The notes: generated from the letters alone by a model not told the origin. 64,000 bases of DNA from Thermodesulfobacteriota bacterium (GCA_965216785.1 OZ244197.1:2848001-2912000), one strand, 5' to 3'; shown: positions 27,675-53,232, counted from the stretch's first letter. Numbers and translations are program-made.

Positions 27675-27866
27675 CAGATTACTGTATTAATAATTATCAC
27701 TGAGTAATCCCCCTATTTCTATAACAGAACCTAAAGGACTCAATTGATAATATTAGGCAACCTTGCCCCTATCTTGCTGAATATAATGGTGTAAATATGG
27801 CTGATTCGGTGTAAATTATTGTATCTTAATAGCTGCGGTAGTAATCAAATATTTGGAAGCTTACTC

Positions 27867-32259: not shown

Positions 32260-32276
32260 CCCTAATGTTAAGTATT

Positions 32277-35633: not shown

Positions 35634-35710
35634 TCAACGTATCTCCTATCATAACTTTTCTTATATTGCTTTAATCCTAGCACTCTAATATCTATTAATT
35701 AACCTCATGA

Positions 35711-36445: not shown

Positions 36446-36473
36446 ACTATTCCTCTCATTACACTTATATTAT

Positions 36474-36899
36474 TTAGGCTCCGTGGTGCTCGCTGCACTG
36501 AACCCACTTGGGTTCTCCACTCGTATAATGCTCCTTTTTCCATATCGGGAGTCTGTGCTTTATTTCATCAATCATATACCTGCAAGCATCAAACGCGCTC
36601 CCGCGGTGCTCTGCAATAACCCCGATCCAAACCGCTATGTCCCCAATGGCCAGATGCCCCTGGCGGTGCACCCCTACTACCTCTAAAATGTTGAACTTCT
36701 CCTTTGCCTCCGCCACAATGCGGAGCGCTTCTTTTACGGCAAGCTCCTCGTAAACCTCGTATTCAAGCGAGGTAACTTCTTCTCCGTCATTATGATTGCG
36801 TACCCTGCCCTCAAAACACACAAATGCCCCGGCCCTTGAATTTATCAGCTCTTTAGTAAGAAAATCGGTATCTATAGACTCATCGGATATCGAGAACAT
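36474..36899 (-). CDS. moaE: Molybdopterin synthase catalytic subunit
   Basis: GAFVCFEGRVR, LEYE, HRQG, HRG-AF and PIWKKE. Confidence 0.95.
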   Translation of the reverse strand: MFSISDESIDTDFLTKELINSRAGAFVCFEGRVRNHNDGEEVTSLEYEVYEELAVKEALRIVAEAKEKFNILEVVGVHRQGHLAIGDIAVWIGVIAEHRGSAFDACRYMIDEIKHRLPIWKKEHYTSGEPKWVQCSEHHGA

Positions 36900-36902
36900 T
36901 CA

Positions 36903-37154
36903 TTAACCTCCCGCCACCGGGGGAATGAAGATGACACGATCCCCCGAGCATAGAGCTGTATCCATACTCTGGAACTCTTCGTTAATCGACACTCTGATGC
37001 TCCTTGAATCTTGAGGGAAACCGTATTCCCCCGAAAGGTCTTTATATAGCTCCTGGGGAGTCGCGGCGAAAGATTCTATATCTTCCTCTCTCTTCCCGGC
37101 TTTCTCTCTCAACATTGCATAGTAATGAATATTTAAGACTTTGGGTTTTTCCAT
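36903..37154 (-). CDS. moaD: Molybdopterin synthase sulfur carrier
   Basis: YAMLRE; C-terminal FIPPVAGG. Confidence 0.95.
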   Translation of the reverse strand: MEKPKVLNIHYYAMLREKAGKREEDIESFAATPQELYKDLSGEYGFPQDSRSIRVSINEEFQSMDTALCSGDRVIFIPPVAGG

Positions 37155-38341
37155 TACCGTTCTCCTTTATCTAAATTGGATTTTGCTGTTTTAAATTCCT
37201 CTTCATTGTTAATATTTTCGAGATTTTCACGCTCTGTCTGTTCGACCGTTTCCACCGGTGAGTGCATGAGAATGTCTCTTGGGGACATGTTGCCCGCTGC
37301 GAGATTCTGAAGGAGCCTTAGTCTTATTTTAGGCTCATAGATAGAGCAAAGAGGCTCTGGGAGATCGCCCTTAGCGCTACTGAAACAGGTGGCTATTTTC
37401 AAGGGATTTCGGTTCTTTAAAAGCCTCTCAATAGTCTCTCGGTCCACATAAGGCAGATCGCAGGCAACCACAAGCCAGGCCGCTTGAGGATGAGCGTGCA
37501 TTGCGGAGAGAATTCCCGAAAGTGGGCCCAACCCGATGAATACGTCATGTATCTGAGGCAGTTTCCCCAAACTCTGAGCTTTCCACTGATCCTTTTTGGA
37601 CGATATGAATACTTTGCCGCAAACCTCAGACAAAAGCCTGTAAACCACCTCTGCCTGAGGCCGTCCGTGATAATCGATCATGGCCTTGTCCCTATCCATT
37701 CGCCGGCTGTCGCCACCTGTGAGCACAAGACCGTAAAGAGGCGTCTCTGAAGCTAAAGCGGCAAGATACTCTCTGATAAAATCTACGATACCAAAAACGT
37801 CATCCCGATGAAAATAGGGCGCGTCTACGGGAAGTCTGTCAACTCTTTGTTCTGAGCCGATAAAGCCGATTACGTTTTCTATATCACCGCAAGATACGGA
37901 GCTTAGAATCTCCTTCTTATCATCTATTAATAAGAGCTTATTAACGAGCGTTTTCTTAAAACCTTCTATGAACACTAAATCACAGGAGTTAAACGCGGCC
38001 TGTATCTCTAATGGCGTAGGCACGCCCCTATGAATATTGGCCGTATGGCGGGAATCTGAGATAGAGATGCGGGAAGCCCCGCTCGACCAGGCTCTTTGCG
38101 TATCCTTCCCCTCTTTATCTATCTCAAACTGATGTATGCCGTATTTTATATAGCCAATATCGAACTCTTGGCTTAAGCTCTCGATAAGGCGCGTAATCAG
38201 AGTCGTTTTCCCCGTATTTGAATAACCGCAGATCGAGATTTCGAAGGGATGAAATATATACCCGTCCTGAGCTACAGCGCTCTGGCCGCTTGAATCGCGT
38301 TTGATATCCGTAATCCCGGTAATGTTTTTAAAATCTTCCAT
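37154..38341 (-). CDS. mobAB: MobB-MobA fusion (MGD biosynthesis)
   Basis: N-terminal GYSNTGKTT and IEGFK; C-terminal LTGGDSRRM-DK, GPLSG, VACDLP and EPLC-IY. Confidence 0.9.
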   Translation of the reverse strand: MEDFKNITGITDIKRDSSGQSAVAQDGYIFHPFEISICGYSNTGKTTLITRLIESLSQEFDIGYIKYGIHQFEIDKEGKDTQRAWSSGASRISISDSRHTANIHRGVPTPLEIQAAFNSCDLVFIEGFKKTLVNKLLLIDDKKEILSSVSCGDIENVIGFIGSEQRVDRLPVDAPYFHRDDVFGIVDFIREYLAALASETPLYGLVLTGGDSRRMDRDKAMIDYHGRPQAEVVYRLLSEVCGKVFISSKKDQWKAQSLGKLPQIHDVFIGLGPLSGILSAMHAHPQAAWLVVACDLPYVDRETIERLLKNRNPLKIATCFSSAKGDLPEPLCSIYEPKIRLRLLQNLAAGNMSPRDILMHSPVETVEQTERENLENINNEEEFKTAKSNLDKGER

Positions 38342-38364
38342 AGCTATGGACTCTGTCGCTAAAA

Positions 38365-39339
38365 TCAGCCTCCTATCTTATACATATCCTGCTCTACGCG
38401 CTCGATCCTTCTATACGGTTTCATCTTAAGTAGCTCGTTTAATTTACTTTTAAATTCCTGAGGCTCTACATCACGTATGTATACGCCGTCCTCCGACATC
38501 AGGCAGGCCCTTAAAAATCCGTCCGCAGAGAGCCTCCATCTGGAGCAATTACGGCAGAATGGAAGGGTCTCGGAGGCAATAAATCCGATACTGGCCCCTG
38601 TTGCAGTCTTGAAGTTAAAAGAGGTCGAATCACTCTCTGACTGCTCGCTTATTAGCTCCACCTGACTCGATATTTTCTGAATTGCTTGCGCAGCGGAGAC
38701 AAAGAGCTTATCTTTAGAGCCGCCCGCCTGCCCAATGCTCATGAGCTCAAGGAACCTCACCTGAATTCCGTGATCGGCAGAAAATTTTATAAAATCCAAT
38801 ATCTCGTGCTCGTTAATTCCACTCATGAGCACTGTATTGATCTTCACATGAAACCCAAGCTGTTTGGCGCGCAAAACCGAATCCAGAACCTTATCGAAGT
38901 AGTCTCTTCTCGCGATACGGTTAAAAGTATCCTTGGTGAGCGAATCAAGACTTATGTTGATGTGCTTACAGTTGGTATCATTTAAGAAGTCGAGCTCTTT
39001 TGTTAAATTCCAGCCGTTTGTGGTAAGCCCGAGCTTCTCAAGCGGAAGTGAAGAGAGGCGAAGGACAATATCCCTGAAATCCTCACGTAAAGTAGGCTCT
39101 CCGCCCGTTATACGTATCTGCTCCAATCCGAAATTAACTAAAGTAGAGCATACGCTCTCGATCTCATCCGGGCGAAGCCAACGTGATGAATCCATAAATA
39201 CAGGATTTAGCGGCATACAGTAAACACAGCGGAAATTGCACGCATCCAGAAGAGAAACCCTGAGTTTTCTGATCCTTCTTCCATAGTTGTCAATTAGCGG
39301 TACGATAGGTTTAACGTTCATAGCGGTTGTCCTCTCCAC
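38365..39339 (-). CDS. moaA: GTP 3',8-cyclase
   Basis: LRVSL, CNFRCVYC, ITGGEP, FCRNCSR and C-terminal IGG; the start may be the second Met (39318). Confidence 0.95.
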   Translation of the reverse strand: MERTTAMNVKPIVPLIDNYGRRIRKLRVSLLDACNFRCVYCMPLNPVFMDSSRWLRPDEIESVCSTLVNFGLEQIRITGGEPTLREDFRDIVLRLSSLPLEKLGLTTNGWNLTKELDFLNDTNCKHINISLDSLTKDTFNRIARRDYFDKVLDSVLRAKQLGFHVKINTVLMSGINEHEILDFIKFSADHGIQVRFLELMSIGQAGGSKDKLFVSAAQAIQKISSQVELISEQSESDSTSFNFKTATGASIGFIASETLPFCRNCSRWRLSADGFLRACLMSEDGVYIRDVEPQEFKSKLNELLKMKPYRRIERVEQDMYKIGG

Positions 39340-40535
39340 AGGTATAGTGGAAATGCTTTTCCTTTTTCGAAATAATTTTTTTCTTCTGAAAGCTCGATGA
39401 ACCCAGAGCTGTAGGCAAGGGACGTGAAATCCCCCGAGCCGTTAAGCGCGACAGGTGCACCAGTAATTGTCCCGTTCTCACGGTATGTAATTTTGACGGG
39501 CAAGAAGTATGTAAGATCTTTTTCAAATATGAAATCTTCTTCCAAAACTGCATATGGCATGTGTGCCTTAGTATCGATACCTAAAGATTTCCAGAGTGAG
39601 GGCAGTACGTAGCGGTGCAGGCAAACGAGAGCTGAATTGGGGTTTCCAGGGAGCCCGAAAACTCTTTTCCCTTCTTGAGTACAGCCAAACCAAAGAGGTT
39701 TTCCGGGGCGCTGTTTGACCCTGTGAAACAGCTCTTCCACACCAAGGTGTTTTAACGCTCCGGGGATAAAATCGAACTTACCCTTTGAGACCCCTCCGGA
39801 AATAATAACCACGTCCGACGTATCGAGTATTTTCCCAAGTGAGGATAAAATCTCATCCTCACTATCGTGAAGGTGATAACTGTTAATATCGTTAAACTCG
39901 TATGCTGAAAGTGATGTCATGAGAGCATAAGAATTAGACTGTCTTATCTGATAATCGGCGGGTTTTTGATCGACGTCGACAAGCTCGTCCCCGGTGCTGA
40001 CAACAGATATGGGAGGACGCTTGGACACTTTTATGTCCGCACACCCGACTGCAGCTGCGATTGCGGCATATGGGGCGCTTAGCACACATCCTCCGTTATT
40101 GATTACTTCACCCCCTCTACAATCAGTACCCATGCGGTGGACGTTCTGCATTTTTTCCAAAGTGAGAGAGCCATCAATACCCGCTATGCCGTCCTTTATG
40201 CACACGTCTTCGTATCTGATTACGGCGTCTGAGCCCTTGGGGAGCGGCGCTCCTGTCATAACTTCGATACAGTTCTCCGGATTTTTAAGAGCCATCTGAG
40301 GCTGCCCGGCTTTTTGGCATCCTTCAATCGGATAGTCCGTCCGTCCGCTCTCCCTGCTTTGTACGGAGACGGCAATACCGTCCATAGCTGCGCGGTTAAA
40401 CGGAGGATAATCCCTGTCGGCAACGAGGGGCTGCCTGAGCACTTCGCCCTGTATACTGCAGATTTCGGTAAGGGTTGAATCTGCCGGTAACGATCGGCTG
40501 AGAATAATTTCTTCGGCTTTTTTAACTGATATCAT
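39318..40535 (-). CDS. moeA: Molybdopterin molybdenumtransferase
   Basis: PPFNRAAMDG, MTGA, STGDEL, SGGVSKG, RPGKP and LPGNP. Confidence 0.96.
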   Translation of the reverse strand: MISVKKAEEIILSRSLPADSTLTEICSIQGEVLRQPLVADRDYPPFNRAAMDGIAVSVQSRESGRTDYPIEGCQKAGQPQMALKNPENCIEVMTGAPLPKGSDAVIRYEDVCIKDGIAGIDGSLTLEKMQNVHRMGTDCRGGEVINNGGCVLSAPYAAIAAAVGCADIKVSKRPPISVVSTGDELVDVDQKPADYQIRQSNSYALMTSLSAYEFNDINSYHLHDSEDEILSSLGKILDTSDVVIISGGVSKGKFDFIPGALKHLGVEELFHRVKQRPGKPLWFGCTQEGKRVFGLPGNPNSALVCLHRYVLPSLWKSLGIDTKAHMPYAVLEEDFIFEKDLTYFLPVKITYRENGTITGAPVALNGSGDFTSLAYSSGFIELSEEKNYFEKGKAFPLYLWRGQPL

Positions 40536-40540
40536 ATAGG

Positions 40541-40665
40541 CTCCTTTCCAAGCACGGGAGGCCAGGCGTTTTCACTGCTCTGACCCCGGCAAATATATTT
40601 CTATATTTGCGGCTTAGCCCCCATATTCAAAGAGCTGAACTTAGAGAGCTAAGCTCGGAACTTCT
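40541..40665 (-). ncRNA. Moco RNA motif (molybdenum cofactor riboswitch)
   Basis: Minus strand TCCGAGC...CTAAG...TATGG...GCCG, hairpin GCAAATATA-GAAA-TATATTTGC, GGGT...GAAA...GCCTCCCGTGCTTGGAAAGGAG; 3' end overlaps the moeA RBS. Confidence 0.88.
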
Positions 40666-40700
40666 GGTTTATAGTTTAAGTTACTTTGTTCTCTTCTCCT

Positions 40701-41264
40701 TCATAACGGTTCCACTGTTATTGCTTTCCCTGTTTGGCTTACACAAATGTAGGCGCACTTTCCGCACCCTATGCATTTATCTCCGTCTATTACCGGATAC
40801 TTATCGTCGTGCATGGATATTGCCGACACACCGGGTGGACACGTGTTGAAACAGTAATCACAGTACTGTCCCTGCTTTACCAAACAGTGTTTTAAATCGA
40901 CGTGCGCGGCGCCGATTCTAAGCTCTTTATCGTCATTTTCTCTAAGTGCTAATGGCTCACAGGACTTTATGCAAGGCATGTCCTCACAGAACCTGCAGGG
41001 GGCATAGTACGGGTCTATAAATGGGGTTCCGGCGTTAACACCACCTGTGAGCAGATCAACCAAGTGCACCGCATCGTGCGGGCAGGCTTTCCTGCAGTCC
41101 CCGCAGCGCGTGCACGTAATGAGGAACTGCTCCTCACGGAGCGCCCCCGGAGGTCTTATCGCCGGGCGTTTAAACTTGTGCTTTAGCCCCTTATCTATAA
41201 GCTTGGTGCTTTCTTTAAAACCGAACTTTAAAAATCCTCTCCTGCTCAGCTGCTCAGATTGCAT
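40701..41264 (-). CDS. NapG/MauM/NapF-like polyferredoxin, probably cytoplasmic
   Basis: SRRGFLK with no hydrophobic h-region; RPPGA; four Cys clusters, e.g. CTRCGDCRKAC and CIGCGKCAYIC. Confidence 0.85.
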   Translation of the reverse strand: MQSEQLSRRGFLKFGFKESTKLIDKGLKHKFKRPAIRPPGALREEQFLITCTRCGDCRKACPHDAVHLVDLLTGGVNAGTPFIDPYYAPCRFCEDMPCIKSCEPLALRENDDKELRIGAAHVDLKHCLVKQGQYCDYCFNTCPPGVSAISMHDDKYPVIDGDKCIGCGKCAYICVSQTGKAITVEPL

Positions 41265-41267
41265 ATA

Positions 41268-42989
41268 CTAGTAGCTCCCCCTCATCGCCATAGGCTGGAA
41301 TACAAACCATATCCCTAAAATCCCGATCGCGAGTAAAAGCGCATAATGGGCATAATAAAGACTCCTGCCCTTTGCAGCTTCAGATCCGAACAATTTATCG
41401 GAAATGCTAAAAGACCTTATCTTTAAAATTTTTGCCGAATAGTAAAATCCCAAACAGATGGCAATTAACTGCAGAGCCATCATTGTACCGTGCCCGGCAA
41501 GCGGCCCAGGGGTGTAGCCCTTGAGACCCAGCAGGTTCCATCCCCAACCAAACGGATCGTTAAAAAGCGGGAACAGATATGTGACCTCATCCAGTATATG
41601 CATGAGGTTATGACCTATGTGATAACCCAGCACAACCGGCACCAGGGCATAAATCATCATCATGGAAATACCCTTTTTGCCAAACCTGTGCCCGATGAGC
41701 TTTTCAAATAGGTAGAAAACCGCAAACGAGCCGGCGAGTATTGTAGTGAGCAGTATGGAAAAAACGGACAGATAAGAGAGATCGAGCGCCCTGCCTATTC
41801 CCTCCGTCCATTCCACCCAGATGTTAGTCATAGTAAGCCCATGGAAAAAAGTAAGCACCAGTATAACGTAAATAAGAATCGATTCATCCATCCGGTACGT
41901 CGATGTGTTTTGTAAGTCGTATGCAGGAGGACGAAGCTTCAGGGTCAGATTGTCTTTATCGCAAGAGCGGACGCATTCGGTGCAAAGGGTGCAGTAAGTA
42001 TTCTGGCTTAGTTTGAACGGAACTTCAAGCGTGGGGCATGGAGTGGAATAAGTGCCCCCTCTAACACAGTCTATGGTTTTACAGTCTTTACATACCTGCG
42101 CGTCTTTTTGCCTAAGCTCCAAGGGTGAGAATTGAGCGTAAATACCGCTGATACGGCCTATTGGGCATGCGTAGCGGCAAAAAGAGCGTTTTTCAAATAT
42201 CAGTGCCGACAGTACCGCAATAACCACGACAGAAAGCCCGAGCCAGGCGGTCAGATATGAGTTCTGTGTAAGCTCCACACCAAGCTCAAGCCAGGTGAAT
42301 ATGATGAAAAACACAACTGCCAGATATGTATTTCTAAGGAGCTTTGGCCATTTAAGGTTTAGAGTCTGCACTTTTCCCTTAACCCTGTAGAACCAGCCGA
42401 ACTGAAATAGGTTAGAGAAAAAATCCCACGGGCACGCTGCGCAGAATATCTTTCCCCCGAACGCGACGAAAAATATAAGCAGTGTCCACCAAAATAGCCA
42501 CGTAAACGGAGCGGCCAGGTTTGCCCTTGTGCGGCCGAAGAACCCCGTAGCAAGCACAAGGATAAAAAGTAAGGCAGGTATGAGACGGAGTGAGAATGAA
42601 AAATACGGTGACTTAACCGCCTTCTCCAGAAGCGGGAGCCTGAACAAATCGAACCTTTTCTCTGAAACGGGCTTTACGGCTTTTGCGGCAACCCATACGC
42701 CCACAACAACAAAGAACAGGATCGAAAGCCAAGCGCCGGCGGCGCCCCCGTACATTCCGTGGTGGGCTCCGTGGTCCATGTTCATACCGTGCGCAGGCAT
42801 CTGAACCTCGGTATGGGCTGAGCTTTGCATATCGTGGCCCATTTCCCCGTGCCCTTCGTGAGTATCCATATTCATTTCGTGCCCAGAGCCCTGATCCACA
42901 CCCATACTATGATCACTTTCGGGCATCTCATGCTGGATACTTTTATGATCGTCGTGATTCATGTTTTTATCTTGCATCTCATCTGGCAT
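41268..42989 (-). CDS. NapH/FixG-like membrane polyferredoxin with His/Met-rich N-terminus
   Basis: GKIFCAACPW, FCRYACPIG, CKDC..C..C and CTLCTECVRSC; many TM helices; ~80-aa His/Met-rich leader. Confidence 0.85.
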   Translation of the reverse strand: MPDEMQDKNMNHDDHKSIQHEMPESDHSMGVDQGSGHEMNMDTHEGHGEMGHDMQSSAHTEVQMPAHGMNMDHGAHHGMYGGAAGAWLSILFFVVVGVWVAAKAVKPVSEKRFDLFRLPLLEKAVKSPYFSFSLRLIPALLFILVLATGFFGRTRANLAAPFTWLFWWTLLIFFVAFGGKIFCAACPWDFFSNLFQFGWFYRVKGKVQTLNLKWPKLLRNTYLAVVFFIIFTWLELGVELTQNSYLTAWLGLSVVVIAVLSALIFEKRSFCRYACPIGRISGIYAQFSPLELRQKDAQVCKDCKTIDCVRGGTYSTPCPTLEVPFKLSQNTYCTLCTECVRSCDKDNLTLKLRPPAYDLQNTSTYRMDESILIYVILVLTFFHGLTMTNIWVEWTEGIGRALDLSYLSVFSILLTTILAGSFAVFYLFEKLIGHRFGKKGISMMMIYALVPVVLGYHIGHNLMHILDEVTYLFPLFNDPFGWGWNLLGLKGYTPGPLAGHGTMMALQLIAICLGFYYSAKILKIRSFSISDKLFGSEAAKGRSLYYAHYALLLAIGILGIWFVFQPMAMRGSY

Positions 42990-42991
42990 GA

Positions 42992-43597
42992 CTAAGCACC
43001 TGCCGTACCCACCTGTTTCCCCGGGGCCTGCTCTTTATTCTTTTGCAGCCTTGAAGTAACGATCTTTAGCATAATTACGACTGCGAAAAACAGGGCGATA
43101 AAGATATATAGCGAGTATTTCTGGAAAAATGTTTGAGTGATCTGAAACGGCATCTCGAGCCTTACGGGAGCACCGTTCTTGTCGGCAAACTCAACATTCA
43201 ACACCAAATCGTCCTGCTCCTTAATTTGCTCCTGTATTACGTAAATGCTTTCCTGCTCGGGTGGGATAAACCCTGTTTTATATACTGTTTTGCCGTGGGA
43301 CAGCACCTCGAAGCTAGCCTCATTTTGAAACACTTTATCTGCCTCGATGTCGTAGATAAATATGTATAGTCTCACATCATCCGAGGATTCGACCTGCTCC
43401 AGATTAAGCCCCTGGAAGTTGTAAACCGTAACGAAGAGCTCATACTCAGGCGTCTCTTTTATAAATTCCAGATAAGGAACCTGGGGATAGTTCTCAAAAT
43501 ACCCGTAATGGGGAAGCCCCTTATAGTGATGGGCTCCCGCACTGATTGCGGGGAGAATGAATATTGCGATTAAAACCATAAATTTAAGCAGTTTCAT
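42992..43597 (-). CDS. Hypothetical exported protein with C-terminal membrane anchor
   Basis: Signal peptide ending AGA, mature N-terminus HHYKGLPHY, C-terminal TM helix; overlaps the upstream gene. Confidence 0.8.
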   Translation of the reverse strand: MKLLKFMVLIAIFILPAISAGAHHYKGLPHYGYFENYPQVPYLEFIKETPEYELFVTVYNFQGLNLEQVESSDDVRLYIFIYDIEADKVFQNEASFEVLSHGKTVYKTGFIPPEQESIYVIQEQIKEQDDLVLNVEFADKNGAPVRLEMPFQITQTFFQKYSLYIFIALFFAVVIMLKIVTSRLQKNKEQAPGKQVGTAGA

Positions 43598-44582
43598 GTT
43601 GTGCTACTTCCTCTAATTTTTCGTATCCGGGATTTGGCTTTTTATAAAGCGGATTTAAGCCGAGCGCTATGTTTGTCGTAGGGCAGTTATCGACGCATTT
43701 GAGACACAGATGACAGGAGTAGAGATCTCCCTCTTTAGGGAATAGTTCCACCGGGCATACTTTATTGCAAAGAGTGCAGCCGCTCGGGCATTTCGAGGCT
43801 TCGACTCTGAGTTTTACAACACTGAACTTTCCTAGATAGGACAATAAAAACCCGGTCGGACATACGGAGTTGCAAAACTGTCCGGGCACAAGTCCAATGT
43901 CCAGCACTAGTAGCGCGATTATGAAATAAAACCCAACATTGAATGTGGAAAATACAAAATATGAAAACATCTCGTGCGTAAATGAGATATAAGGCAGAAT
44001 GAAGTGCCAGACCCAGGCGCCGAATAGGTAGGAAAGCACCAGCCCTCCCCAAAATACTATCACCCTCGTTTTCCTCTCAAGTCTGACTGACATAAGAGGG
44101 ATACCGACCCTGAGCATTATTGAGCGTATATAACCCGTCACGCCGTACAGCACAGTCATGGGACACAACCATGAACAGAACACCCGTCCGAGCAAAAGCA
44201 CCACAACAAAAGGTATGAGCCCCCCGATCAGGTACTTGAGCGGGAATTTCACAGAGTTTATGAGCTCTGAGATTAACCCAAGCGGGTCTGAGAACGGTAC
44301 GCCCAATATCGTAAAGGCCCAGAGGGAGCCGTTATTGGAAGTTGCCGCCGTCACGGGATCATCCCACATAGAGTAAAACCAATCCAGCGCTGCATAAGTG
44401 CTGCCCATCATAGGACCGTAGCTCAGACCCACTAGATGAGAGTGGTTATAAGAGATTTTGTTGTTAGCGTACCAACTGCTGAGCGGAACAAATATAAAAA
44501 ACAGTAATACGCTTAATAGAATAGCGTATCTTAGATACTGGTATTTAGACCTTTTTATTCTAAGTCTTTTTGATCTTTTCAT
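43584..44582 (-). CDS. napH: NapH/MauN-like membrane ferredoxin
   Basis: SDPLG, GRVFCSWLCP, FCNSVCPTG, CTLCNKVCP and CHLCLKCVDNCP; start taken as ATG 44582. Confidence 0.85.
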   Translation of the reverse strand: MKRSKRLRIKRSKYQYLRYAILLSVLLFFIFVPLSSWYANNKISYNHSHLVGLSYGPMMGSTYAALDWFYSMWDDPVTAATSNNGSLWAFTILGVPFSDPLGLISELINSVKFPLKYLIGGLIPFVVVLLLGRVFCSWLCPMTVLYGVTGYIRSIMLRVGIPLMSVRLERKTRVIVFWGGLVLSYLFGAWVWHFILPYISFTHEMFSYFVFSTFNVGFYFIIALLVLDIGLVPGQFCNSVCPTGFLLSYLGKFSVVKLRVEASKCPSGCTLCNKVCPVELFPKEGDLYSCHLCLKCVDNCPTTNIALGLNPLYKKPNPGYEKLEEVAQHETA

Positions 44583-44587
44583 TCCAG

Positions 44588-45160
44588 CTACACCGGACGA
44601 ACGCGTATGGCCTGCGGCATATGTATACACGCCTGCTCACAAAGTCCGCACCCTACGCACTCATCTTCATTCACAATCGGCTGCTCGTACAAGCCAACGC
44701 TAAGAGCCTTGCCAGGAAGCGGACACGCTCTGTAGCAAACACCGCATGTACGCCCGTGATATGAAAAGCAAAGATCCTTGTCAACATAGGCAATGCCCAT
44801 TTTAACTTCTTTTCTCACGACGTCCATATCACGGGAAATCGTCGTCAAAGCTCCGGTCGGGCAAACTTCCGTACAACGCATACAGAGTGTACATCCCTTA
44901 CTTCTGGGAACTACAATGGGCGTGTGTACGTTTTCAAACCCGTACTCAAAACCAGCCATCTGTATACAGTTGTTAGGACAAGCGGTCGCACACTTAAAAC
45001 ACCCTATGCACTGCTCTTTGAACTCAGCTTCCTTAAGAGCCCCTGGAGGTCTCAGGAATCTTATCTTTGCCCTAATCTTATCCCGCGTGGCTATGTAGAA
45101 AACCGGCGTTAGGAAAAATAATGCTGAGATTAGGGCAAAGAAAAACCTTCTTCTGTTCAT
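44588..45160 (-). CDS. napG: NapG/MauM-like exported polyferredoxin
   Basis: MNRRRFFF twin-Arg plus hydrophobic stretch; LRPPGA; four Fe-S Cys motifs. Confidence 0.88.
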   Translation of the reverse strand: MNRRRFFFALISALFFLTPVFYIATRDKIRAKIRFLRPPGALKEAEFKEQCIGCFKCATACPNNCIQMAGFEYGFENVHTPIVVPRSKGCTLCMRCTEVCPTGALTTISRDMDVVRKEVKMGIAYVDKDLCFSYHGRTCGVCYRACPLPGKALSVGLYEQPIVNEDECVGCGLCEQACIHMPQAIRVRPV

Positions 45161-45162
45161 TT

Positions 45163-45948
45163 TCAGTCTTGTAAACTTCTAAGGTAAGCCACAATGTTGT
45201 TAATGTCGGTCTCGTCAATGTTGGCAAGACCTCTTCCGTGACCAAAAGGCTTCATAGCCGTTCCGGCACGGCCTACCTGAATTGTTTTCTTGATGTAATC
45301 ATCCGACGCTACATCTAGAAAACCGGGGAGACCAATACCCGGACCCGAACCCCCGTCCGCATAACCCCCGCCGTTAATTCCGTGACAGGACGCGCAGAAG
45401 TTACGAAAAGCTTTTTGCCCTTCCTTAGGGTCACCGTCTATAGTAGCCGTCCAATCAACGTGGTAGTCTCTGAATGTAGCATAATCGTTTTGCCAGGATC
45501 TTATATAAACCACGAGATCATCGACGTTATCAGCTACGTTAGGCATTACCTTGTAACCTATCATCGCCGTTCCCGGCCGCCCGTTTAGGATTGTATCCTT
45601 GATATACGTGTCATTGGCAAGCCCTAAGAAGTCCGGGCTGTTGAGCCTCGGCGCTAGCCCTGCCCTTCCTGCCCCGTCGGGCTGGTGGCACGCAACACAG
45701 ATTTGGTTAAAGAGCACTTTCCCTCTTTCTACCTGCTCCTCATCCAACTCGACTGTTTCGGGATGTGGCTCGGGCATGACATCATCACCTGTTGCCTTGG
45801 CGTGCTCATTTTTAGTTTCCTCTTCAGATACCGACTGCTTGGCCGCATTGGCCTTTGCAACAATATCTGTCGATACATCTGTGCCCCCCTGCTCCCCGCA
45901 GCCAATCAACGCCACGATGGCTATTAGTAGAAGTGTAATATTTTTCAT
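45163..45948 (-). CDS. Lipoprotein diheme class I cytochrome c
   Basis: Lipobox LIG-C; CVACH and CASCH; duplicated GR(P/A)GTAM distal-Met motifs. Confidence 0.9.
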   Translation of the reverse strand: MKNITLLLIAIVALIGCGEQGGTDVSTDIVAKANAAKQSVSEEETKNEHAKATGDDVMPEPHPETVELDEEQVERGKVLFNQICVACHQPDGAGRAGLAPRLNSPDFLGLANDTYIKDTILNGRPGTAMIGYKVMPNVADNVDDLVVYIRSWQNDYATFRDYHVDWTATIDGDPKEGQKAFRNFCASCHGINGGGYADGGSGPGIGLPGFLDVASDDYIKKTIQVGRAGTAMKPFGHGRGLANIDETDINNIVAYLRSLQD

Positions 45949-45962
45949 CGTCCATTATCTCC

Positions 45963-48701
45963 TTATGATATCTTTTCAATTCTTGCTGCCAGCTTCTTAA
46001 AGTCGACCTGCCCTGAGACCGGATCATACGCTCTGTGGGATACTCCGTTAACTAGCCATTTATTCTTTTCAGGATCGGCTGAGTCCGCAACGGAGAGGTT
46101 CCACGGGCTAAATACATACCCTTTAGGAACCGTATTCCTGGCCGGCTTAACCACTGAATCAAGCCCTATGGATACTCTGCCCTCGTATTCTCCGCGGCGT
46201 GTAATGAGCTTTACCCACTCACCGTCTTTAACTCCAAGCTCCTTAGCGTCATCAGGGTGCATCTCAACATACTGCTCAGGAACCAACTTTCTCGTTGTAC
46301 CAGAGCGTATGGTTTTCGCGGTGTGGAAGTGTTCGTATACAACACCGAGCCCAAGCCAGAAGGGGTACTTATCATCAGGAACATCGCTCCATTTCTTCCC
46401 GAGGTAATCAAAGTCGGGAAGCTCTGGTGTAAGCGCCATGTCGCGCGCCTTCACTAGAAGCTCTTGATTGTCTATCGCGTAGAAATCTTTCTCTACACCC
46501 AACTTCATCAGCTCATCCGTAATCTCCTTACGCTGTGAGTAATCCTGATCGCAGAAATGCATGTGGAGCTTTCCGTCTTTTTGTCTGAACTCCCCGTACG
46601 GTTTGCCGGGCCAATCGCCTTCTTGCCCCATGTATCTGCGTTTGGTTCCGCCGTTCTTAGCAATCTCGGCTGTGGGTGCAGGCCACTGGATTCCCCTAAG
46701 GTCTCTTATTTGATCATAGAGTCCTTTTCCGGTTTCCTTCTCCACTTCGAGCATTCCGGTAAGATCGGCGTCCGTTCCCTTCGAGGCAATTACAAAGTCG
46801 CGGAACACCTCTTCAGGATCATAGAACCCGTTTTCCTTTCTCTGATACGGGAATATCTTCTCACTATCGAGTCCGAGCTTGTCGGCGATGAGTTTTCCTT
46901 TATCTATTACCATGTCCATGTCGGGACGCGTTCCCTTGATTGGGTTTGCGGTACCGTCACAGACAAAGAGCCTTCTTTCCGACTGAATATATATACCGCC
47001 TACCCATTCTCCCCACGTTGCGGCAGGCAAGATCACGTCTGAATAGAGGTTATTAGGAGCATGGCGGTAGATTTCCTGTGACACGGTGAAACACCTCGTA
47101 AGAGCGGGGCGCACCAGATGGTAGCTGTCCGGAAGGTCAATGTGGGTAGCGTAGATTAAAAACATAGCGTGCACGTCGCCTTTTTGAGCGCGCTCCATCA
47201 TACCGATCGCCATACCCTGGTTGTTCTGTGTCGCCACTTTATCGAGCCTCTCCTGAGGTACTCCCCAGAGATCGGCAATTTTATGACGGTGGGCTTCGTC
47301 GTTGATCCCTATATTAAACGGCAGCCTGCCGGTCAGGCCTCCTGTCAGACGCTCACCCATAGCGTTTGGCTGTCCTGTCTGAGAGTGCGCTCCGCAGCCT
47401 GGTCTTCCTATGTTGCCGGTAAGAGCCATAAGGTTCACAAGTCCGACAGTGTTGTTCTGTCCGTGTATGTGCTGGTTGTAGCCGATACCCCAGAATGTGA
47501 GTACTCCGCCTTTGCCGTTCTTCCTACCTTTTACAGAGGCATCCGCCCACAGAGCGGCTATTTTATATATTTCCTCAGCAGGAACCATGGTCATGGGCTC
47601 TACGTCTTTTGGATTAAATTTAGCCTGTACTTTCTCAATATAGTCTTCCCAACCGGTGACGCTCTTCTTTAAGAATTCGTAGTCAACGGCTTCAGGGTGT
47701 TTCTCCAAGATAGCGTAGGCTATTGCGTTATGTATGGAGATGTCACCGTTTATTGTCTGAAAGTGGAAAGAATTACCAGGGTTGATCTCCTCTAACCCCT
47801 GAACAGAACCCGTTCTTCGGGGGTCTACTATTAAGGTGGGGATGTTATTTATTTTTTTATGGTCCGCCACCCTCCAGAAAAGGATCGGATGAGCTCCCCT
47901 CGGGTTATGGCCCCAGAAGGTGATCATGTCGGCCATTTCTATATCGTCGTAACACGTGGCCGGAGTATCCGAGCCGAATGTTTTGAAGTATCCCGTAACG
48001 GCAGAGGTCATGCACATCCTTGCGTTTGCCTCAATCGTATTTGACCCCAGAACTCCCTTCATGAATATATTCTCAAGATACTGCCCTTCAAGAGTCAACT
48101 GGCCCGATCCGTAAAGCCCTACGGAGTTACCCCCTTTTTCTTTTACTATATTAGCGACCTGCTCAGAGATCAGCTCTTCCGCCTCATCCCATGAAGCTTC
48201 CCGGAAGTCGCTTGCTTTAAAGCTGCCCTTTGTTTTTGATACGTGCCCCTTAAGAGGATCTGACATATCTTTTCTGATTAAAGGTTTCGTGAGACGGTCT
48301 ACGTATATCGCTTCCGCCGACGCGAGCCCCTTGATACACTGAAGGCCCTTATTAGTAGGATGGTCTTTGTCGGGAATGACTCCGACGATTTTACCTTTTT
48401 TAACTTGCAGGATAGTGCCGCAGCCGACTCCACAGTAAGGACACGCGGCCAAAAGATCGTTTTTATATTCAGTATTGGTAAGCTCATACTCCTCGGTCTC
48501 CTGAGAATGAGCTATTTTCCCGTTACCGCCGGTAAAGAGACCTAAGGCTGTCGCAGCAGCCCCGACCCCGGCAGATGTTTTTATAAAATTTCTCCGCCCA
48601 ACATCGGCTAGTTCCGAAGCTTCGGGAGCCTCGGTTCGAAGCTCATGTTTCTTAGCCTCGTCAATAGGTAATTTTACTTCTTTTGATTTGTTTCCCTTCA
48701 T
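45963..48701 (-). CDS. Tat-exported molybdo-bis-PGD oxidoreductase of the nitrate reductase (Nap/Nas) family
   Basis: GRRNFIK Tat motif plus h-region; CPYCGVGC..CIKG [4Fe-4S]; GSGQ; NARMCMTSA (Cys230 Mo ligand); TGQPNAMG; C-terminal MGD-binding domain. Confidence 0.9.
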   Translation of the reverse strand: MKGNKSKEVKLPIDEAKKHELRTEAPEASELADVGRRNFIKTSAGVGAAATALGLFTGGNGKIAHSQETEEYELTNTEYKNDLLAACPYCGVGCGTILQVKKGKIVGVIPDKDHPTNKGLQCIKGLASAEAIYVDRLTKPLIRKDMSDPLKGHVSKTKGSFKASDFREASWDEAEELISEQVANIVKEKGGNSVGLYGSGQLTLEGQYLENIFMKGVLGSNTIEANARMCMTSAVTGYFKTFGSDTPATCYDDIEMADMITFWGHNPRGAHPILFWRVADHKKINNIPTLIVDPRRTGSVQGLEEINPGNSFHFQTINGDISIHNAIAYAILEKHPEAVDYEFLKKSVTGWEDYIEKVQAKFNPKDVEPMTMVPAEEIYKIAALWADASVKGRKNGKGGVLTFWGIGYNQHIHGQNNTVGLVNLMALTGNIGRPGCGAHSQTGQPNAMGERLTGGLTGRLPFNIGINDEAHRHKIADLWGVPQERLDKVATQNNQGMAIGMMERAQKGDVHAMFLIYATHIDLPDSYHLVRPALTRCFTVSQEIYRHAPNNLYSDVILPAATWGEWVGGIYIQSERRLFVCDGTANPIKGTRPDMDMVIDKGKLIADKLGLDSEKIFPYQRKENGFYDPEEVFRDFVIASKGTDADLTGMLEVEKETGKGLYDQIRDLRGIQWPAPTAEIAKNGGTKRRYMGQEGDWPGKPYGEFRQKDGKLHMHFCDQDYSQRKEITDELMKLGVEKDFYAIDNQELLVKARDMALTPELPDFDYLGKKWSDVPDDKYPFWLGLGVVYEHFHTAKTIRSGTTRKLVPEQYVEMHPDDAKELGVKDGEWVKLITRRGEYEGRVSIGLDSVVKPARNTVPKGYVFSPWNLSVADSADPEKNKWLVNGVSHRAYDPVSGQVDFKKLAARIEKIS

Positions 48702-48750
48702 GGCATTCGGCCTCCTTTGATCTACTCATTTCTGTAGAATATTTAAGCAT

Positions 48751-48772
48751 ATATTTGACTTCTGTCAAATAT
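48751..48772. promoter_or_regulatory. FNR/Dnr (Crp-family)-type palindrome
   Basis: Perfect inverted repeat ATATTTGAC-TTCT-GTCAAATAT (core TTGAC-N4-GTCAA) between the divergent reductase and rrf2 genes. Confidence 0.7.
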
Positions 48773-48865
48773 CCTGATATACTTTTAGTGTTTTGTTAAT
48801 ATTAAAGATGACTTACAGATCATCAAGTCTTCTATAGATATTATACCTTAATAAATTCAAATAAA

Positions 48866-49318
48866 ATGTTTAGCAAAAAAGTAGCTTACGCAATAAGGTG
48901 TTTGGTTTATTTATCTAATCAAAACGATCCTGTTTTGATTAGGGAAATTTCCGATGAAACGGGTATGCCGCGTCCGTTTTTAGCTAAGATTGTAAATACT
49001 CTGACCAGGAAAGGTTTTCTCCACTCACAGCGCGGCGTTGGGGGCGGCATATCTCTTTCGAGAAAACCAGAGCTAATAAGCATTTGCGATGTTTGCATCG
49101 CGCTTGATGACCCTTTATTAGATGACCAGTGCATCGTGGGACTGCCCGACTGCTCCGCGGAGAACGCCTGCGCCCTTCACGGCTTTTGGTCGAAACAAAA
49201 ACAGGCGATTATAGAATTTTTGACAATTAACACAATAGCCACGTTAGCAGTCACAAATAAAAAAGCGAAAAAGGATCTTTTAAAAGAGGTAAAACTTCAT
49301 AATGCTATTTCCGAGTAG
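48866..49318 (+). CDS. Rrf2 family Fe-S transcriptional regulator
   Basis: YAIR, FLAKI, SQRGVGGG and C-x6-C-x5-C-x2-H. Confidence 0.93.
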   Translation: MFSKKVAYAIRCLVYLSNQNDPVLIREISDETGMPRPFLAKIVNTLTRKGFLHSQRGVGGGISLSRKPELISICDVCIALDDPLLDDQCIVGLPDCSAENACALHGFWSKQKQAIIEFLTINTIATLAVTNKKAKKDLLKEVKLHNAISE

Positions 49319-49430
49319 CCGCTTTATGTTTTAAAGTGTTTTAAAGTATAATTTAGCACTCCGAAGTTATCTGCCAAGAAGAATGCCGCAACTAAAGACA
49401 CTAAACTTTTATTATCAGAGGAGGGGCGCC

Positions 49431-50945
49431 TTGCGATATCTCAAACCAAAATCCGATTTACCTTTACGTCAGTATTTTTCGTTTGCCGCGGTATTTATTG
49501 TAGTTGTTGCCGCCGCTTTTTGTATGTATTTAATTGATACAACTGAAGCGTTAGCTCAAGACTCTCAGGGTTTTTCCCAAACAATAAAGGACCACACAAC
49601 ACTTGGGATTAACGTCAGACTTCGGAACGAGTACTGGAATACATTTGAGAAAAAGGGGACCGACACTGAAAGATCCTATAACTTCTTTCTCATAAGAGCA
49701 AGGGCTTTTGCAGATTTTAAATGGCAAAAATACAGAATCCATATACTCACCCAGGGAGTAAAAGCATTTGACTTCCCAAGAAACGGGGCATTCGGTCCGG
49801 GTCCCCTATACTTCAACGCGAGTGACCGGAAAACCGGTCCCGGCAACTTTCAGTTTGTAGAAGCCTTTTTCCAGTACGATGATCCCGAAGGGTTTTATTT
49901 TACGGGAGGGCGTATTCCCATTCGTGAAGGAGCCGAGGTTCTGTATAAGGACAACCCAAAGTTAAATTGGGTTATCAAAAAGAGGCTTTCAGAGCGCCTC
50001 ATCGGAACATGGGACTGGACGAACATAGGAAGAAGATTCGACGGGGCAAGCCTTGGGTATCACAACTCCACATTTGATTTTAACGCGTTCGGGTCGTGGG
50101 TAACTTTCGGCGGATTTGATTTTGATGACGGTTACTGGAAAGACCTGGATAATGTTGTGGTTGTTGGCGGATCGTTCACCATAAAAGAAGGTGTGCTCTT
50201 GGATAATACCCAGTTTAAGCTATTTAACTATTACTATTTCGATAACAGAAATGTCGCGGTTGATTTTGCCGGTGATGATTTGAAGATAGACACTATAGGG
50301 GTAAACATGGTCGGCGCTTATCCCGCGGGACCGGGGGAAATCGATCTTATGTTGTGGGGTGCGCTTCAGTTCGGGAGCTTCGGCGACCTAGACCAAAAAG
50401 CCGGAGCTTTTATAGGAGAGGTAGGATACCAGCTTACAGAAGTTCCATGGAAACCATGGCTTAGAGCGGGTATAGCATATGCCTCGGGAGACGGCGACCC
50501 GAATGACGGAGATAACGGCACTTTCTTCAATATGGTCCCTACGAATCACAAATTTTACGGCTATGTAGACGCAAACGCTTTTAGTAACCTCGTGGATACC
50601 TATTTGCAGTTCTTTTTATCCCCCCACAAGAGAATCAACCTGGCCGTAGACGGCCATCTGTTTTGGCTGGCCTCGGATGAAGAGGTCTGGATCGGCGGAT
50701 CGGGACCTTTTAACGACGCGGTTTTCGGTTACGCGTTCAGAAACCCGGTCGAAGGGAATAATATAGAGCAAGACCTTGGCGGCGAGATCGACATTGGCGC
50801 AAATATAGTCGCCTTGGACTTCCTGTCGTTTCAAGTCGGATACTCTCACTTCTTTGGTGGAGACGGCGTGAGCGTCGTATTTGATAGGGAAGATAACCTG
50901 GATTGGTTCTATGCTCAGTGCATAATCAACTTCCAGACAAAATAA
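49431..50945 (+). CDS. Alginate-export family outer-membrane beta-barrel
   Basis: RBS GAGGAGG before TTG 49431; signal ending ALA-Q; ERLIGTWDW..RRFDG, YASGDGDPND, PTNHKFYG; terminal aromatic beta strand. Confidence 0.8.
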   Translation: MRYLKPKSDLPLRQYFSFAAVFIVVVAAAFCMYLIDTTEALAQDSQGFSQTIKDHTTLGINVRLRNEYWNTFEKKGTDTERSYNFFLIRARAFADFKWQKYRIHILTQGVKAFDFPRNGAFGPGPLYFNASDRKTGPGNFQFVEAFFQYDDPEGFYFTGGRIPIREGAEVLYKDNPKLNWVIKKRLSERLIGTWDWTNIGRRFDGASLGYHNSTFDFNAFGSWVTFGGFDFDDGYWKDLDNVVVVGGSFTIKEGVLLDNTQFKLFNYYYFDNRNVAVDFAGDDLKIDTIGVNMVGAYPAGPGEIDLMLWGALQFGSFGDLDQKAGAFIGEVGYQLTEVPWKPWLRAGIAYASGDGDPNDGDNGTFFNMVPTNHKFYGYVDANAFSNLVDTYLQFFLSPHKRINLAVDGHLFWLASDEEVWIGGSGPFNDAVFGYAFRNPVEGNNIEQDLGGEIDIGANIVALDFLSFQVGYSHFFGGDGVSVVFDREDNLDWFYAQCIINFQTK

Positions 50946-50985
50946 TAGGCGGCTCGTATTTCTTAATGACAGCCCCAAGAGAAGT

Positions 50986-52368
50986 CTAAAACCTCGGATC
51001 GGGATAGTAGAACTTAAACGAGAGCGGGTCGAAATCTCCTGCGGGAGACTCGATAAAGAATTCATAGTGAGTGCGCGGCTCGTAGTTAAAATCCATCCCG
51101 TAGGTACTGCGGTTAATTATAGATATAGGGTGCGTCACAGTCTCATATTCTTCCCTATGAAGCTCCTTTCCTTCTCTCCACTGGATTAGCGTAAGGGGCT
51201 TTGTGTATATTTTATCACCGTCTTTTATGTGAACGTAAAGAGACAGATCGCCGGGCTTATTTTCGTAAGCGGCTCTTCCGAACACTGAGTAAAATACATT
51301 TAGCTCCTTACCGCTTCGGTCTTTTGTAGTAGACTCGCCCTCAAAGAAGGTCTTCTCTAGAACGATATTATGATAATCCTCTTTATCGCTCCACGAGTCT
51401 GCCATGGAGCTCTCAGCCGGCAATAAAAGAAGCAGTGAGACCAAAGCCACGCTTATGAACTTTATCCTTCCGGTAGGGCAATGATCCAGACAGCGCGAGC
51501 ACATATCGCACCTGGGGTCGTTGATCCTGGCCATCGGCGAGAGACCGAGCCAGCACTCTTCCATACACTGCATACACCCCTTTGGACAGCTGAGATCAGA
51601 ATCGTGTCTGAGGCGGAAGACCTTGAGCTTCCCGACTACGCTTAGAAAAATGCCTGTGGGGCATAAATACCTGCAGAAATAACCGGGCTTAGACAACTCA
51701 AATACAACTAAACCCAGAAACAGCGCTCCCCAAAGAGTCCAGCCACCCCATAGTAAAAAATCCGAGACCGAATGCTGAAATATCGCGGGCGGAAGTAGGT
51801 ACTGCAGCACAAGCGGATTTGTGATGACGAGCAAGAAGAGCACTATCATATACACTACCCTACCCTTTTTTTTAAACATCGTTCCGGGAGGAGCCTGCGC
51901 CTTAATTTTTCTTCCAAAAAACTTTCTCTGGATTTTGAGGTTTGTGGATACAATAAGGGACATCGGGCATATATATCCGCAGAATGCCCGTCCGAACAAT
52001 AAAGCGAGACCAAGTGCGATCAGTAATGTCGTAAGGAAAACCCAGTTCCAGGAAGCGGGCTCTAGAACGCTGTTCACAGCCTGCACCGTAATAGTGAGCG
52101 GCTCTGTGAATATTACGGGGAAAAATTTAAACGTGTACGGGCCGCCGGACACATTTTCGTAAATAGGATCGAGCGAGGACCTGAGCCAGTGATCGAACTG
52201 AATAAGAAAATCCCTGCTCCACTGTGTCGTAACAGCGGGAGAGGTGGGGTATGGATAGGGGTCCTGCCTGAATGTTCTGATCAGCTGGAACAGCGGGCTT
52301 ATGAAGAGGATCAATATAATAAATATCTGCAGAGTGCGTCTTACCCATGGGAGTGTTTTATGAGGCAT
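50986..52368 (-). CDS. NapH-like membrane ferredoxin with an extra C-terminal exported domain
   Basis: RBS AGGAGG before ATG 52368; EPL, GRAFCGYICP, FCRYLCPTG, CMQC-EEC and CDMCSRCLDHCP; then a hydrophobic helix and a ~140-aa soluble domain. Confidence 0.85.
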   Translation of the reverse strand: MPHKTLPWVRRTLQIFIILILFISPLFQLIRTFRQDPYPYPTSPAVTTQWSRDFLIQFDHWLRSSLDPIYENVSGGPYTFKFFPVIFTEPLTITVQAVNSVLEPASWNWVFLTTLLIALGLALLFGRAFCGYICPMSLIVSTNLKIQRKFFGRKIKAQAPPGTMFKKKGRVVYMIVLFLLVITNPLVLQYLLPPAIFQHSVSDFLLWGGWTLWGALFLGLVVFELSKPGYFCRYLCPTGIFLSVVGKLKVFRLRHDSDLSCPKGCMQCMEECWLGLSPMARINDPRCDMCSRCLDHCPTGRIKFISVALVSLLLLLPAESSMADSWSDKEDYHNIVLEKTFFEGESTTKDRSGKELNVFYSVFGRAAYENKPGDLSLYVHIKDGDKIYTKPLTLIQWREGKELHREEYETVTHPISIINRSTYGMDFNYEPRTHYEFFIESPAGDFDPLSFKFYYPDPRF

Positions 52369-52963
52369 AATTTTCCTCCTTTGGCAAGACGTATATCGCG
52401 GTCGGGGTTTGCGGGCAGCGCTCTTCGCACCTGCCGCACCCGATGCAGTGGTCTTCATGCACGACGGGCTTTGCCCTTGGGATAAGAGTAATGGCGCTTC
52501 CTTTCAGAGGGCAGGCGTCGTGGCAAATCCCGCATATCCTGCCGTTATAGGAAAGACAATTTGTCTCGAGCACTACAGCCGTTCCCATATCTACTTTTTC
52601 GCTGATCTCCTGAAGATCGCGTTTGATGGGCGAGAGAGCGCCAGAAGGACACACCTGAGTGCAGTTCATGCACAGATTGCATGACCTGATCCTCGTATTA
52701 AGAAACGGGGTTCCGGCGAGCCGCTCGTTCTCTGTAAAGCTGAAAAAGCGTATGCACCCGGCCTGGCACACATTGGCGCAGGCGCGGCACCTGATGCATT
52801 CCTTTACGAATTCGCGCTCGGCTTTAGCGCCCGGGGGGCGGACGTACCTGTGCGCAAGCGCTGAATCTGGGAAGAAAAAATTAAACAACCGGAAGAACTG
52901 GAAAGTGAAACTTACCAGGAGAAATGAAATGAACCATAAAAACTGGTTTCTTGTTATCTTCAA
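52358..52963 (-). CDS. NapG/MauM-like exported polyferredoxin (second copy)
   Basis: TTG start with AAGGAG RBS; TRNQFL Tat-like variant plus h-region; RPPGA; CIRCRAC, CNLCMNC, CGICHDAC and CIGCGRC. Confidence 0.88.
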   Translation of the reverse strand: MKITRNQFLWFISFLLVSFTFQFFRLFNFFFPDSALAHRYVRPPGAKAEREFVKECIRCRACANVCQAGCIRFFSFTENERLAGTPFLNTRIRSCNLCMNCTQVCPSGALSPIKRDLQEISEKVDMGTAVVLETNCLSYNGRICGICHDACPLKGSAITLIPRAKPVVHEDHCIGCGRCEERCPQTPTAIYVLPKEENYAS

Positions 52964-53156: not shown

Positions 53157-53232
53157 TGGCTCCGGAGGAGGGATTCGAACCCCCGACCTAGTGATTAACA
53201 GTCACCCGCTCTGCCAGCTGAGCTACTCCGGA
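53157..53232 (-). tRNA. tRNA-Asn (GTT)
   Basis: TCCGGAGTAGCTCAGCTGGCAGAGCGGGTGACTGTTAATCACTAGGTCGGGGGTTCGAATCCCTCCTCCGGAGCCA; 76 nt with encoded CCA. Confidence 0.97.

Follow-up and report, generated by a model that had tools for sequence, protein, structure and literature searches.

A conserved, apparently undescribed operon that probably reduces nitrate in the periplasm without NapD

How would a bacterium respire nitrate in its periplasm with none of the usual partners of the periplasmic nitrate reductase NapA? The question is raised by positions 40,701 to 52,963 of a 64,000-nt stretch of DNA from a Thermodesulfobacteriota bacterium (GCA_965216785.1 OZ244197.1:2848001-2912000), called the window below and the frame for all coordinates that carry no other prefix. 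Its source genome, coded G000 (G codes denote genomes and L codes loci), is 3.12 Mb long, lies on one contig and is 92% complete. An earlier note on this DNA had proposed that a molybdenum (Mo) enzyme and six further genes form one minus-strand operon encoding a distinct oxyanion-respiration module without NapB, NapC or NapD. The operon itself was borne out: all genes described here are intact open reading frames (ORFs), and seven minus-strand ORFs, from the enzyme gene (45963-48701) to a NapF-like gene (40701-41264), abut or overlap one another, with gaps of 14, 2, -43, -14, 2 and 3 bp in that order. The -43 overlap stems from a mechanically assigned GTG start in H1, whose true start is probably an ATG 51 nt inside the mechanical ORF. 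In operon order the genes encode:

45963-48701, minus strand: 912-aa enzyme of the Mo-bis(pyranopterin guanine dinucleotide) (bisPGD) type, exported by twin-arginine translocation (Tat), predicted catalytic subunit (Pfam/NCBIfam, motifs, trees)
45163-45948, minus strand: 261-aa dihaem class-I cytochrome c with the lipobox LIGC, two CxxCH sites and two GRxGTxM-type Met motifs (Pfam Cytochrom_C/CBB3)
44588-45160, minus strand: G1, NapG-like polyferredoxin with a twin-arginine start and a hydrophobic anchor (family scan; best match in 76/80 related loci)
43584-44630, minus strand: H1, NapH-like membrane ferredoxin (family scan)
42992-43597, minus strand: 201-aa exported, C-terminally anchored Ig-like protein, candidate metal-binding accessory (alignment of 77 sequences and structure model)
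41268-42989, minus strand: H3, 573-aa NapH-like polyferredoxin membrane protein with a variable His/Met-rich N-terminus (family scans)
40701-41264, minus strand: G3, NapF-like ferredoxin with an RR motif and no hydrophobic stretch, predicted cytoplasmic (family scan)

Profile searches of the whole genome returned no NapB and no NapD in G000, and its one NapC/NirT-family match is NrfH, encoded immediately ahead of NrfA at a distance of about 80 kb from the enzyme gene; the absence claimed for the window holds for the genome. We consider that the cluster probably encodes a respiratory nitrate reductase of the periplasm that operates without NapD and receives electrons through NapGH-like proteins and a His/Met cytochrome. 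The substrate, left broad as an oxyanion in the earlier note, can be narrowed to nitrate with fair confidence, and that interpretation as a whole is supported in part.

Family scans placed the domains Molybdopterin, Fe4S4, Molydop_binding and TAT in the enzyme, whose best PDB sequence matches are NapA. It carries the Tat start GRRNFIK and the motifs CPYCGVGC..QCIK, EANARMCMTSA and GQPNAMGER; GQPNAMG is a Nas-like motif, and the catalytic Lys, like the Arg that follows GQPNAMG, aligns with its NapA/Nas counterpart and not with the Cys/Sec-His of formate dehydrogenases. The Cys-Met ligand motif EANARxCMTS was found in 79 of 82 aligned rows, the other three having no match, and a twin-Arg motif was present in 52/77 relatives by a strict pattern and in 76/76 by a lenient one. 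Nevertheless, the enzyme is only about 30% identical to NapA or Nas and scored far below the family cut-offs: 328.6 against the NapA model TIGR01706 (cut-off 930.55), 362.7 against NF010055 (cut-off 904), and 279.6 and 258.8 against assimilatory Nas models (cut-offs 1000 and 1100, respectively). The formate dehydrogenase alpha model gave 329.6 (cut-off 666), with Cys-Met in the enzyme instead of Cys/Sec-His.

Trees were built with FastTree from 182 rows and with IQ-TREE (LG+G4) from 42 of those rows; reference labels came from eight annotated plasmid records and from hidden Markov model scores, and many rows had no label. Four long-branch rows and one fragment without the Cys-Met site, which grouped with the enzyme clade in FastTree, were omitted from IQ-TREE. 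In the IQ-TREE analysis, the enzyme clade (nine rows, stem 0.5) and NapA (12 rows) each had support of 100/100 and NasA 100/99, all of them separate, and the FastTree phylogeny likewise separated the enzyme clade from NapA. The approximately unbiased test rejected neither sister placement, giving p 0.195 for the clade with NapA and 0.086 for the clade with NasA. Because the enzyme scores under the NapA cut-offs and lies outside the NapA clade, it is not NapA by membership, and its sequence places it in what appears to be a lineage of its own beside NapA and Nas. Long-branch relatives of 930-960 aa (P0254, P0311, P0326 and P0343) lack the Mo-ligand Cys and one Fe-S Cys spacing; judged by these residues, the group possibly comprises cofactor-less or differently ligated MopB proteins.

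A contig scan of genomes confirmed 250 relatives of the enzyme, and 80 loci at 60-84% identity were kept. The core operon recurs across these loci, which are titled Bacteroidota, Verrucomicrobiota, Myxococcota, Planctomycetota, Bdellovibrionota, Pseudomonadota and others, some record titles looking unreliable. Where at least 7 kb of downstream sequence was available (50 loci), every locus had NapG-like and NapH-like genes, 48 had the 201-aa family, 42 had H3 and 43 had G3, counts that argue against a chance gene order; at least three G-like genes occurred in 15. The 201-aa family was found in 65 of all 80 loci. A cytochrome gene accompanied the enzyme in 46/46 loci with both sides visible; it lay upstream of the enzyme in 64/80 loci and downstream in 8/80, the window having the rarer order, and the cytochromes of related loci mostly carry two or four haems with matching Met motifs. 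The proposal of a distinct module was thus upheld, both by this conservation without NapB, NapC or NapD and by the two trees. Within the host's order, only 2 of 101 genomes carried the enzyme, the second being possibly a repeat of a locus already among the 80; this patchy occurrence, together with high identity across phyla, suggests horizontal spread. No clade member was found among 629 plasmid records with a match, all of which were below 60% identity. In 10/80 loci a MOSC-domain protein lies near the operon (e.g., L040:18709-19212) and is possibly a partner in sulfur or molybdenum cofactor (Moco) handling; genes for SCO1/SenC copper-chaperone-like (L005:9160-9888) and DUF255 thioredoxin-like (L075:9954-12284) proteins each occur near it in 6/80.

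What surrounds the operon bears on the substrate. All the neighbours listed in the earlier note were found in the window. The Moco run and nnrS come after G3 on the same strand, rrf2 and the porin gene are divergent from the enzyme, and a second NapG/NapH pair converges on the porin gene:

33442-34641, minus strand: nnrS, a local neighbour (Pfam NnrS, 1.6e-91)
34725-40535, minus strand: Moco run of moeA, moaA, a mobB-mobA fusion, moaD, moaE, tauE and a moaC-mog fusion (family scans)
48866-49318, plus strand: Rrf2-family regulator with three Cys (ORF and family scans)
49383-50945, plus strand: outer-membrane barrel (porin) of the Alginate_exp family (family scan)
50986-52458, minus strand: H2, second NapH-like protein with an extra C-terminal domain, not core (family scan)
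52358-52963, minus strand: G2, second NapG-like protein, not core (family scan)

With these, the window encodes three NapG/NapF-like and three NapH-like proteins, all under the NCBIfam cut-offs. The idea that the porin, rrf2, Moco genes and nnrS are parts of the system did not hold: among the 80 loci, a porin-like gene was found in five by BLAST to the window porin and a second porin cluster in seven, rrf2 in two, moaA in 10 and nnrS in two, marking them as local neighbours. Where relatives have the porin and Moco genes, these serve Nar or Nas, with porin relatives lying beside nasA/narK and Moco genes in L137, L138 and L140 and beside nrfHA in L141. L139 has a nasA/narK/Moco cluster of the L137 type, in which our script annotated no porin. 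In L141 (G058:C19:30000-35100), a DMSO-reductase type II-like beta/gamma/chaperone run precedes the window-type porin family and nrfHA.

Two relatives reveal what else can occupy the site of the operon. The congener G149 carries rrf2 and the porin gene at 84% DNA identity to the window and, in the enzyme's place and divergently, genes for a cytochrome c, narG, narH, narJ-like and narI, and then another gene that is cut off where the contig stops. A second G149 contig opens partway through a haemerythrin gene, after which come two narK-like genes, G3, moeA and moaA; from G3 on it matches window positions 38690-41251 at 85% identity. In G133, from another genus, the porin gene, rrf2 and a cytochrome c gene are followed by the first 50 codons of narG before the contig ends, which is why the narG search counted only 1/101 genomes. 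From these layouts, the new module in G000 takes up the interval from rrf2 to G3 that a Nar cassette fills in relatives, and this exchange with nar genes at one slot is what the window adds to knowledge of the clade. The presence of Nar in two genera suggests that the Nar cassette was there first; a 64-bp match to the 3' end of H2, located after the porin gene in G149, suggests instead that the new module was.

The remainder of G000 is consistent with a role in nitrate reduction. Apart from the enzyme, the genome has no catalytic candidate of the bisPGD type, the other PF00384 matches reading as ActB and NuoG from sequence and neighbours, and neither a xanthine-oxidase nor a sulfite-oxidase family match was found in G000. 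The window copies of the Moco genes queried were the only ones found in the genome (moeB was not recognized among the window ORFs scanned), and the enzyme is the only apparent client of these genes. A genome search found nrfHA but neither narG nor narK, and the absence of narK fits a periplasmic enzyme. NrfA of this nrfHA pair (G000:C1:2814382-2816374, L001) has five CxxCH motifs, i.e., CxxCH at the first haem, where CxxCK is usual, and a tRNA-like sequence lies just upstream.

Carrier genomes were surveyed in 50 of the 80 sources, which are incomplete metagenome-assembled genomes (MAGs). NapD matches (13/50, each beside canonical napA) and NapB matches (11/50, three of them strong, all near canonical napA) accompanied NapA, so that the 34 genomes without NapA show neither. 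NarG was found in 3/50, and neither NapA nor NarG was detected in 32/50. At other loci, nitrogen-oxide genes lie near the operon: a NarX/NarL-like pair in L079 and L080, canonical napA in L005 and L031, qNor in L055 and RIC in L030 and L031. At L005:17963-22652 and G003:C8:73625-89170, the operon is followed directly by a canonical napA cluster, with nirK about 4 kb further on. The nitrate assignment thus draws on the slot exchange, the Cys-Met site, the single bisPGD candidate, nrfHA without narG or narK, the nitrogen-oxide neighbours elsewhere, the porin context and the carriers without NapA or NarG.

We infer the substrate, direction, electron path and accessory roles as follows. Quinol would be oxidized by membrane-bound H1, and electrons would pass to the exported Fe-S protein G1 and on to the lipid-anchored His/Met dihaem cytochrome, the predicted donor in NapB's place judging from its haem motifs and position. 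From there they would reach the [4Fe-4S] cluster of the enzyme and its Cys-ligated Mo-bisPGD, where nitrate would be reduced to nitrite; in G000, NrfHA could then take nitrite to ammonium. G3 may act like NapF, in maturation. The 201-aa protein, H3 and H1 may form one membrane unit, and metal handling or maturation in NapD's place is possible for it, although this is the weakest step. Dissimilatory nitrate reduction to ammonium was rejected as a rule for the family, NrfA being found in 3/50 carriers.

Several observations weigh against so simple a picture. Bona fide NapA also occurs in 16/50 carriers (12 over the cut-off and four placed by the tree), and such co-occurrence could mean a different substrate. 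Nitrite reductases are few, with NrfA in 3/50, NirS in 5/50 and NirK in 7/50 (jointly 15/50), other nitrite reductases not having been searched and the MAGs being incomplete. Fewer than half of the 80 loci have nitrogen-oxide genes as neighbours. Arg720, listed in the part of a 2026 review at hand as a conserved pterin contact in NapA (PMC13223375), is replaced in the clade, where GVVYEHFH stands in 81/82 rows. The two G149 contigs were joined by inference from the split haemerythrin gene and share no sequence overlap, and what a common slot demonstrates is common cofactor supply and regulation, which need not mean an identical substrate.

The alternative that survives best keeps nitrate as the substrate and alters only wiring and purpose: nitrate would be reduced as a redox-balancing sink or as a branch of a high-potential chain (alternative complex III or a bc complex), with NapGH not the main route. 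We regard this as possible but distinctly less probable than respiration fed by NapGH. The partner cytochrome has His/Met class-I haems, which are usually high-potential, and G000 contains a cluster that reads as alternative complex III (C1:169422-176751, with a 974-aa ActB-like protein and a pentahaem cytochrome). Against such wiring stand the NapG-like and NapH-like genes in 50/50 well-covered loci.

It is unlikely that the enzyme reduces a different oxyanion or oxide (chlorate, perchlorate, bromate, iodate, selenate or an N-oxide), with nitrate at most a side substrate. The long stem, the low identity to NapA and Nas, the altered pterin patch, the coexisting NapA and the few nitrite reductases would all suit such a role, and NapA itself reduces chlorate and perchlorate according to the part of PMC12769810 at hand. 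However, nar genes are exchanged in the same slot in two relatives, NarX/NarL-like genes are neighbours at two loci, and no chlorite dismutase appeared among the 14 recurrent neighbour clusters scanned. The Cys-Met site also differs from Aio and Idr, which have no amino-acid ligand in the available text of PMC10100899. Since nitrite oxidoreductases are found among the NarG-like proteins, the slot exchange is a better guide to the nitrate/nitrite couple than to its direction; even so, a reversed enzyme passing electrons from nitrite to a high-potential cytochrome, as the type of its partner might allow, is very improbable, given that the NapGH-like quinol dehydrogenase partners and the narI/narK/nrfHA context point to reduction and that we know of no Nap/Nas-type enzyme that oxidizes nitrite in vivo.

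A further component of the operon is the 201-aa protein. It has a signal peptide, directly behind it the motif HHYKGLPHY, an Ig-like sandwich and a C-terminal helix, and His23, His24, Lys26, Gly27, Leu28, Pro29 and His30 were invariant in 77/77 sequences. The ORF had no Pfam or NCBIfam match, scanning its 77 relatives against Pfam brought up no family consistently, and ESM Atlas returned unnamed clusters with a weak YtkA-like lead (18% of one cluster). A single-sequence fold was poor (predicted local distance difference test, pLDDT, 66.6) and was replaced by an alignment-based model (pLDDT 88.6). Its fold neighbours were CrdA (Z 10.1), PmoD (Z 9.8) and FtrA/P19-type proteins (Z 8.2-8.6), although unrelated Ig folds also reached Z 8-9. 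The protein resembles CrdA, PmoD and FtrA/P19 in its Ig-like beta-sandwich (Z 8-10, root-mean-square deviation 2.7-3.8 A over about 100 residues) but shares 8-9% identity with them, and its His motif is outside the aligned range; metal binding is only a lead. The domain is fused in 24/66 ORFs, to H1 in 16, to H1 and H3 in seven and to H3 in one, and these fusions suggest that the three proteins may form one complex. At its N-terminus, H3 is variable, and several relatives lack the His/Met-rich stretch. The C-terminal domain of H2 had a homology probability of only 10% with the 201-aa family and no match in a family search of the loci.

How does the module compare with known systems? The part of the 2026 review at hand gives four nap operon types, napEDABC, napDAGHB, napCMADGH and napAGHBFLD, all with napD (PMC13223375), and E. 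coli NapA is inactive and degraded without NapD, as given in a portion of PMC10609526. A Nap without NapB and NapC is already known from Caldithrix, napM-napA-napG..napH (PMC5317091, in part); what sets the module apart is its enzyme's lineage, its accessory genes and the lack of NapD. Desulfovibrio/Caldithrix-type Nap likewise has a Tat-exported, Cys-ligated Mo-bisPGD enzyme, a NapGH-like pair and a cytochrome other than NapB, and that of Caldithrix also does without NapC. Unlike these, however, the module has an enzyme that does not group with NapA (the monomeric Selenomonas NapA does), a class-I His/Met dihaem lipoprotein where they have tetrahaem NapM, no NapD, and the extra 201-aa protein and H3. 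Campylobacterota Nap (napAGHBFLD) is similarly NapC-independent and NapGH-fed, with a NapF-like gene and an enzyme of about 920 aa, whereas the module has neither NapB nor NapD and the Sulfuricurvum NapA falls inside NapA, far from its enzyme. NasA/NasC/NarB share the CPYCGVGC and GQPNAMG motifs, but the module's enzyme has a Tat signal and periplasmic partners and forms a separate clade.

We found no description of the clade or the module in the literature searched, although subscription papers or supplements may hold one. The accessible portion of PMC10100899 does not name the enzyme clade and that of PMC9751292 gives nothing on it; the supplements of PMC12769810 and PMC10100899 yielded no carrier taxa, the sequence lists of the latter not being covered, and the NapA phylogeny of PMC12769810 was, by the text at hand, built on cultured organisms with canonical operons. 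The module is real, conserved and apparently an undescribed variant of periplasmic nitrate respiration. A bolder version, somewhat short of an even bet, would make it a third, globally distributed reductase system for nitrate respiration that can trade places with NarGHI at one chromosomal slot, matures without NapD and is organized around a membrane complex of NapH, the His-motif protein and a polyferredoxin with its own metal site.

Inventories of the nitrate-to-nitrite step use napA and narG models, and the enzyme passes neither cut-off; its relatives are named in their sources molybdopterin-dependent oxidoreductase, ferredoxin-nitrate reductase or selenocysteine-containing dehydrogenase. 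For the lineages of the 32 carriers without a detected NapA or NarG, a capacity to respire nitrate may therefore go unnoticed, and the location of the module where two relatives carry narG makes it a likely overlooked way to respire nitrate. On the bolder version, many marine and low-oxygen bacteria scored as non-nitrate-respiring would gain this step, possibly energy-conserving through high-potential haems. The module is also a test of a Tat-exported Nap-like enzyme maturing without NapD, and one relative, with 74% identity, is named from Lentisphaera profundi, which may serve as an organism in culture for such work.

Two candidate regulatory sites lie between the enzyme gene and rrf2:

48751-48772, no strand: 22-bp perfect palindrome with the core TTGAC-N4-GTCAA, 54 bp before the enzyme start (only such core in G000)
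48807-48824, no strand: GATGA-N8-TCATC palindrome before rrf2, candidate Rrf2 operator (kept in G149, not found in G133)

The first overlaps a sigma70 -35-like site, and its core equals the HcpR consensus given in the available part of PMC1274295. No Crp-type helix-turn-helix regulator passed the cut-off in G000, which has two cNMP-domain matches. An FNR-like box was rejected as a family feature, being enriched but rare (4/68 loci against 0.25 expected), and a promoter/terminator scan stayed at shuffle level.

The right edge of the region is marked by a tRNA gene:

53157-53232, minus strand: tRNA-Asn

Integration at this gene was rejected, since no repeat of the tRNA 3' end was found. On the other side, a TIGR04053 radical SAM/SPASM protein over its cut-off (32265-33425) converges on nnrS and has a homologue near the cluster in L076, and a 900-aa fusion, judged from its sequence to be acyl-CoA ligase/carrier/acyltransferase-like, lies beside the region (27819-30521). 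Finally, runs of secreted proteins were seen at L136:4607-11367 and L001:212-1096, one of the proteins ending in an IPT-type C-terminal anchor-like motif.

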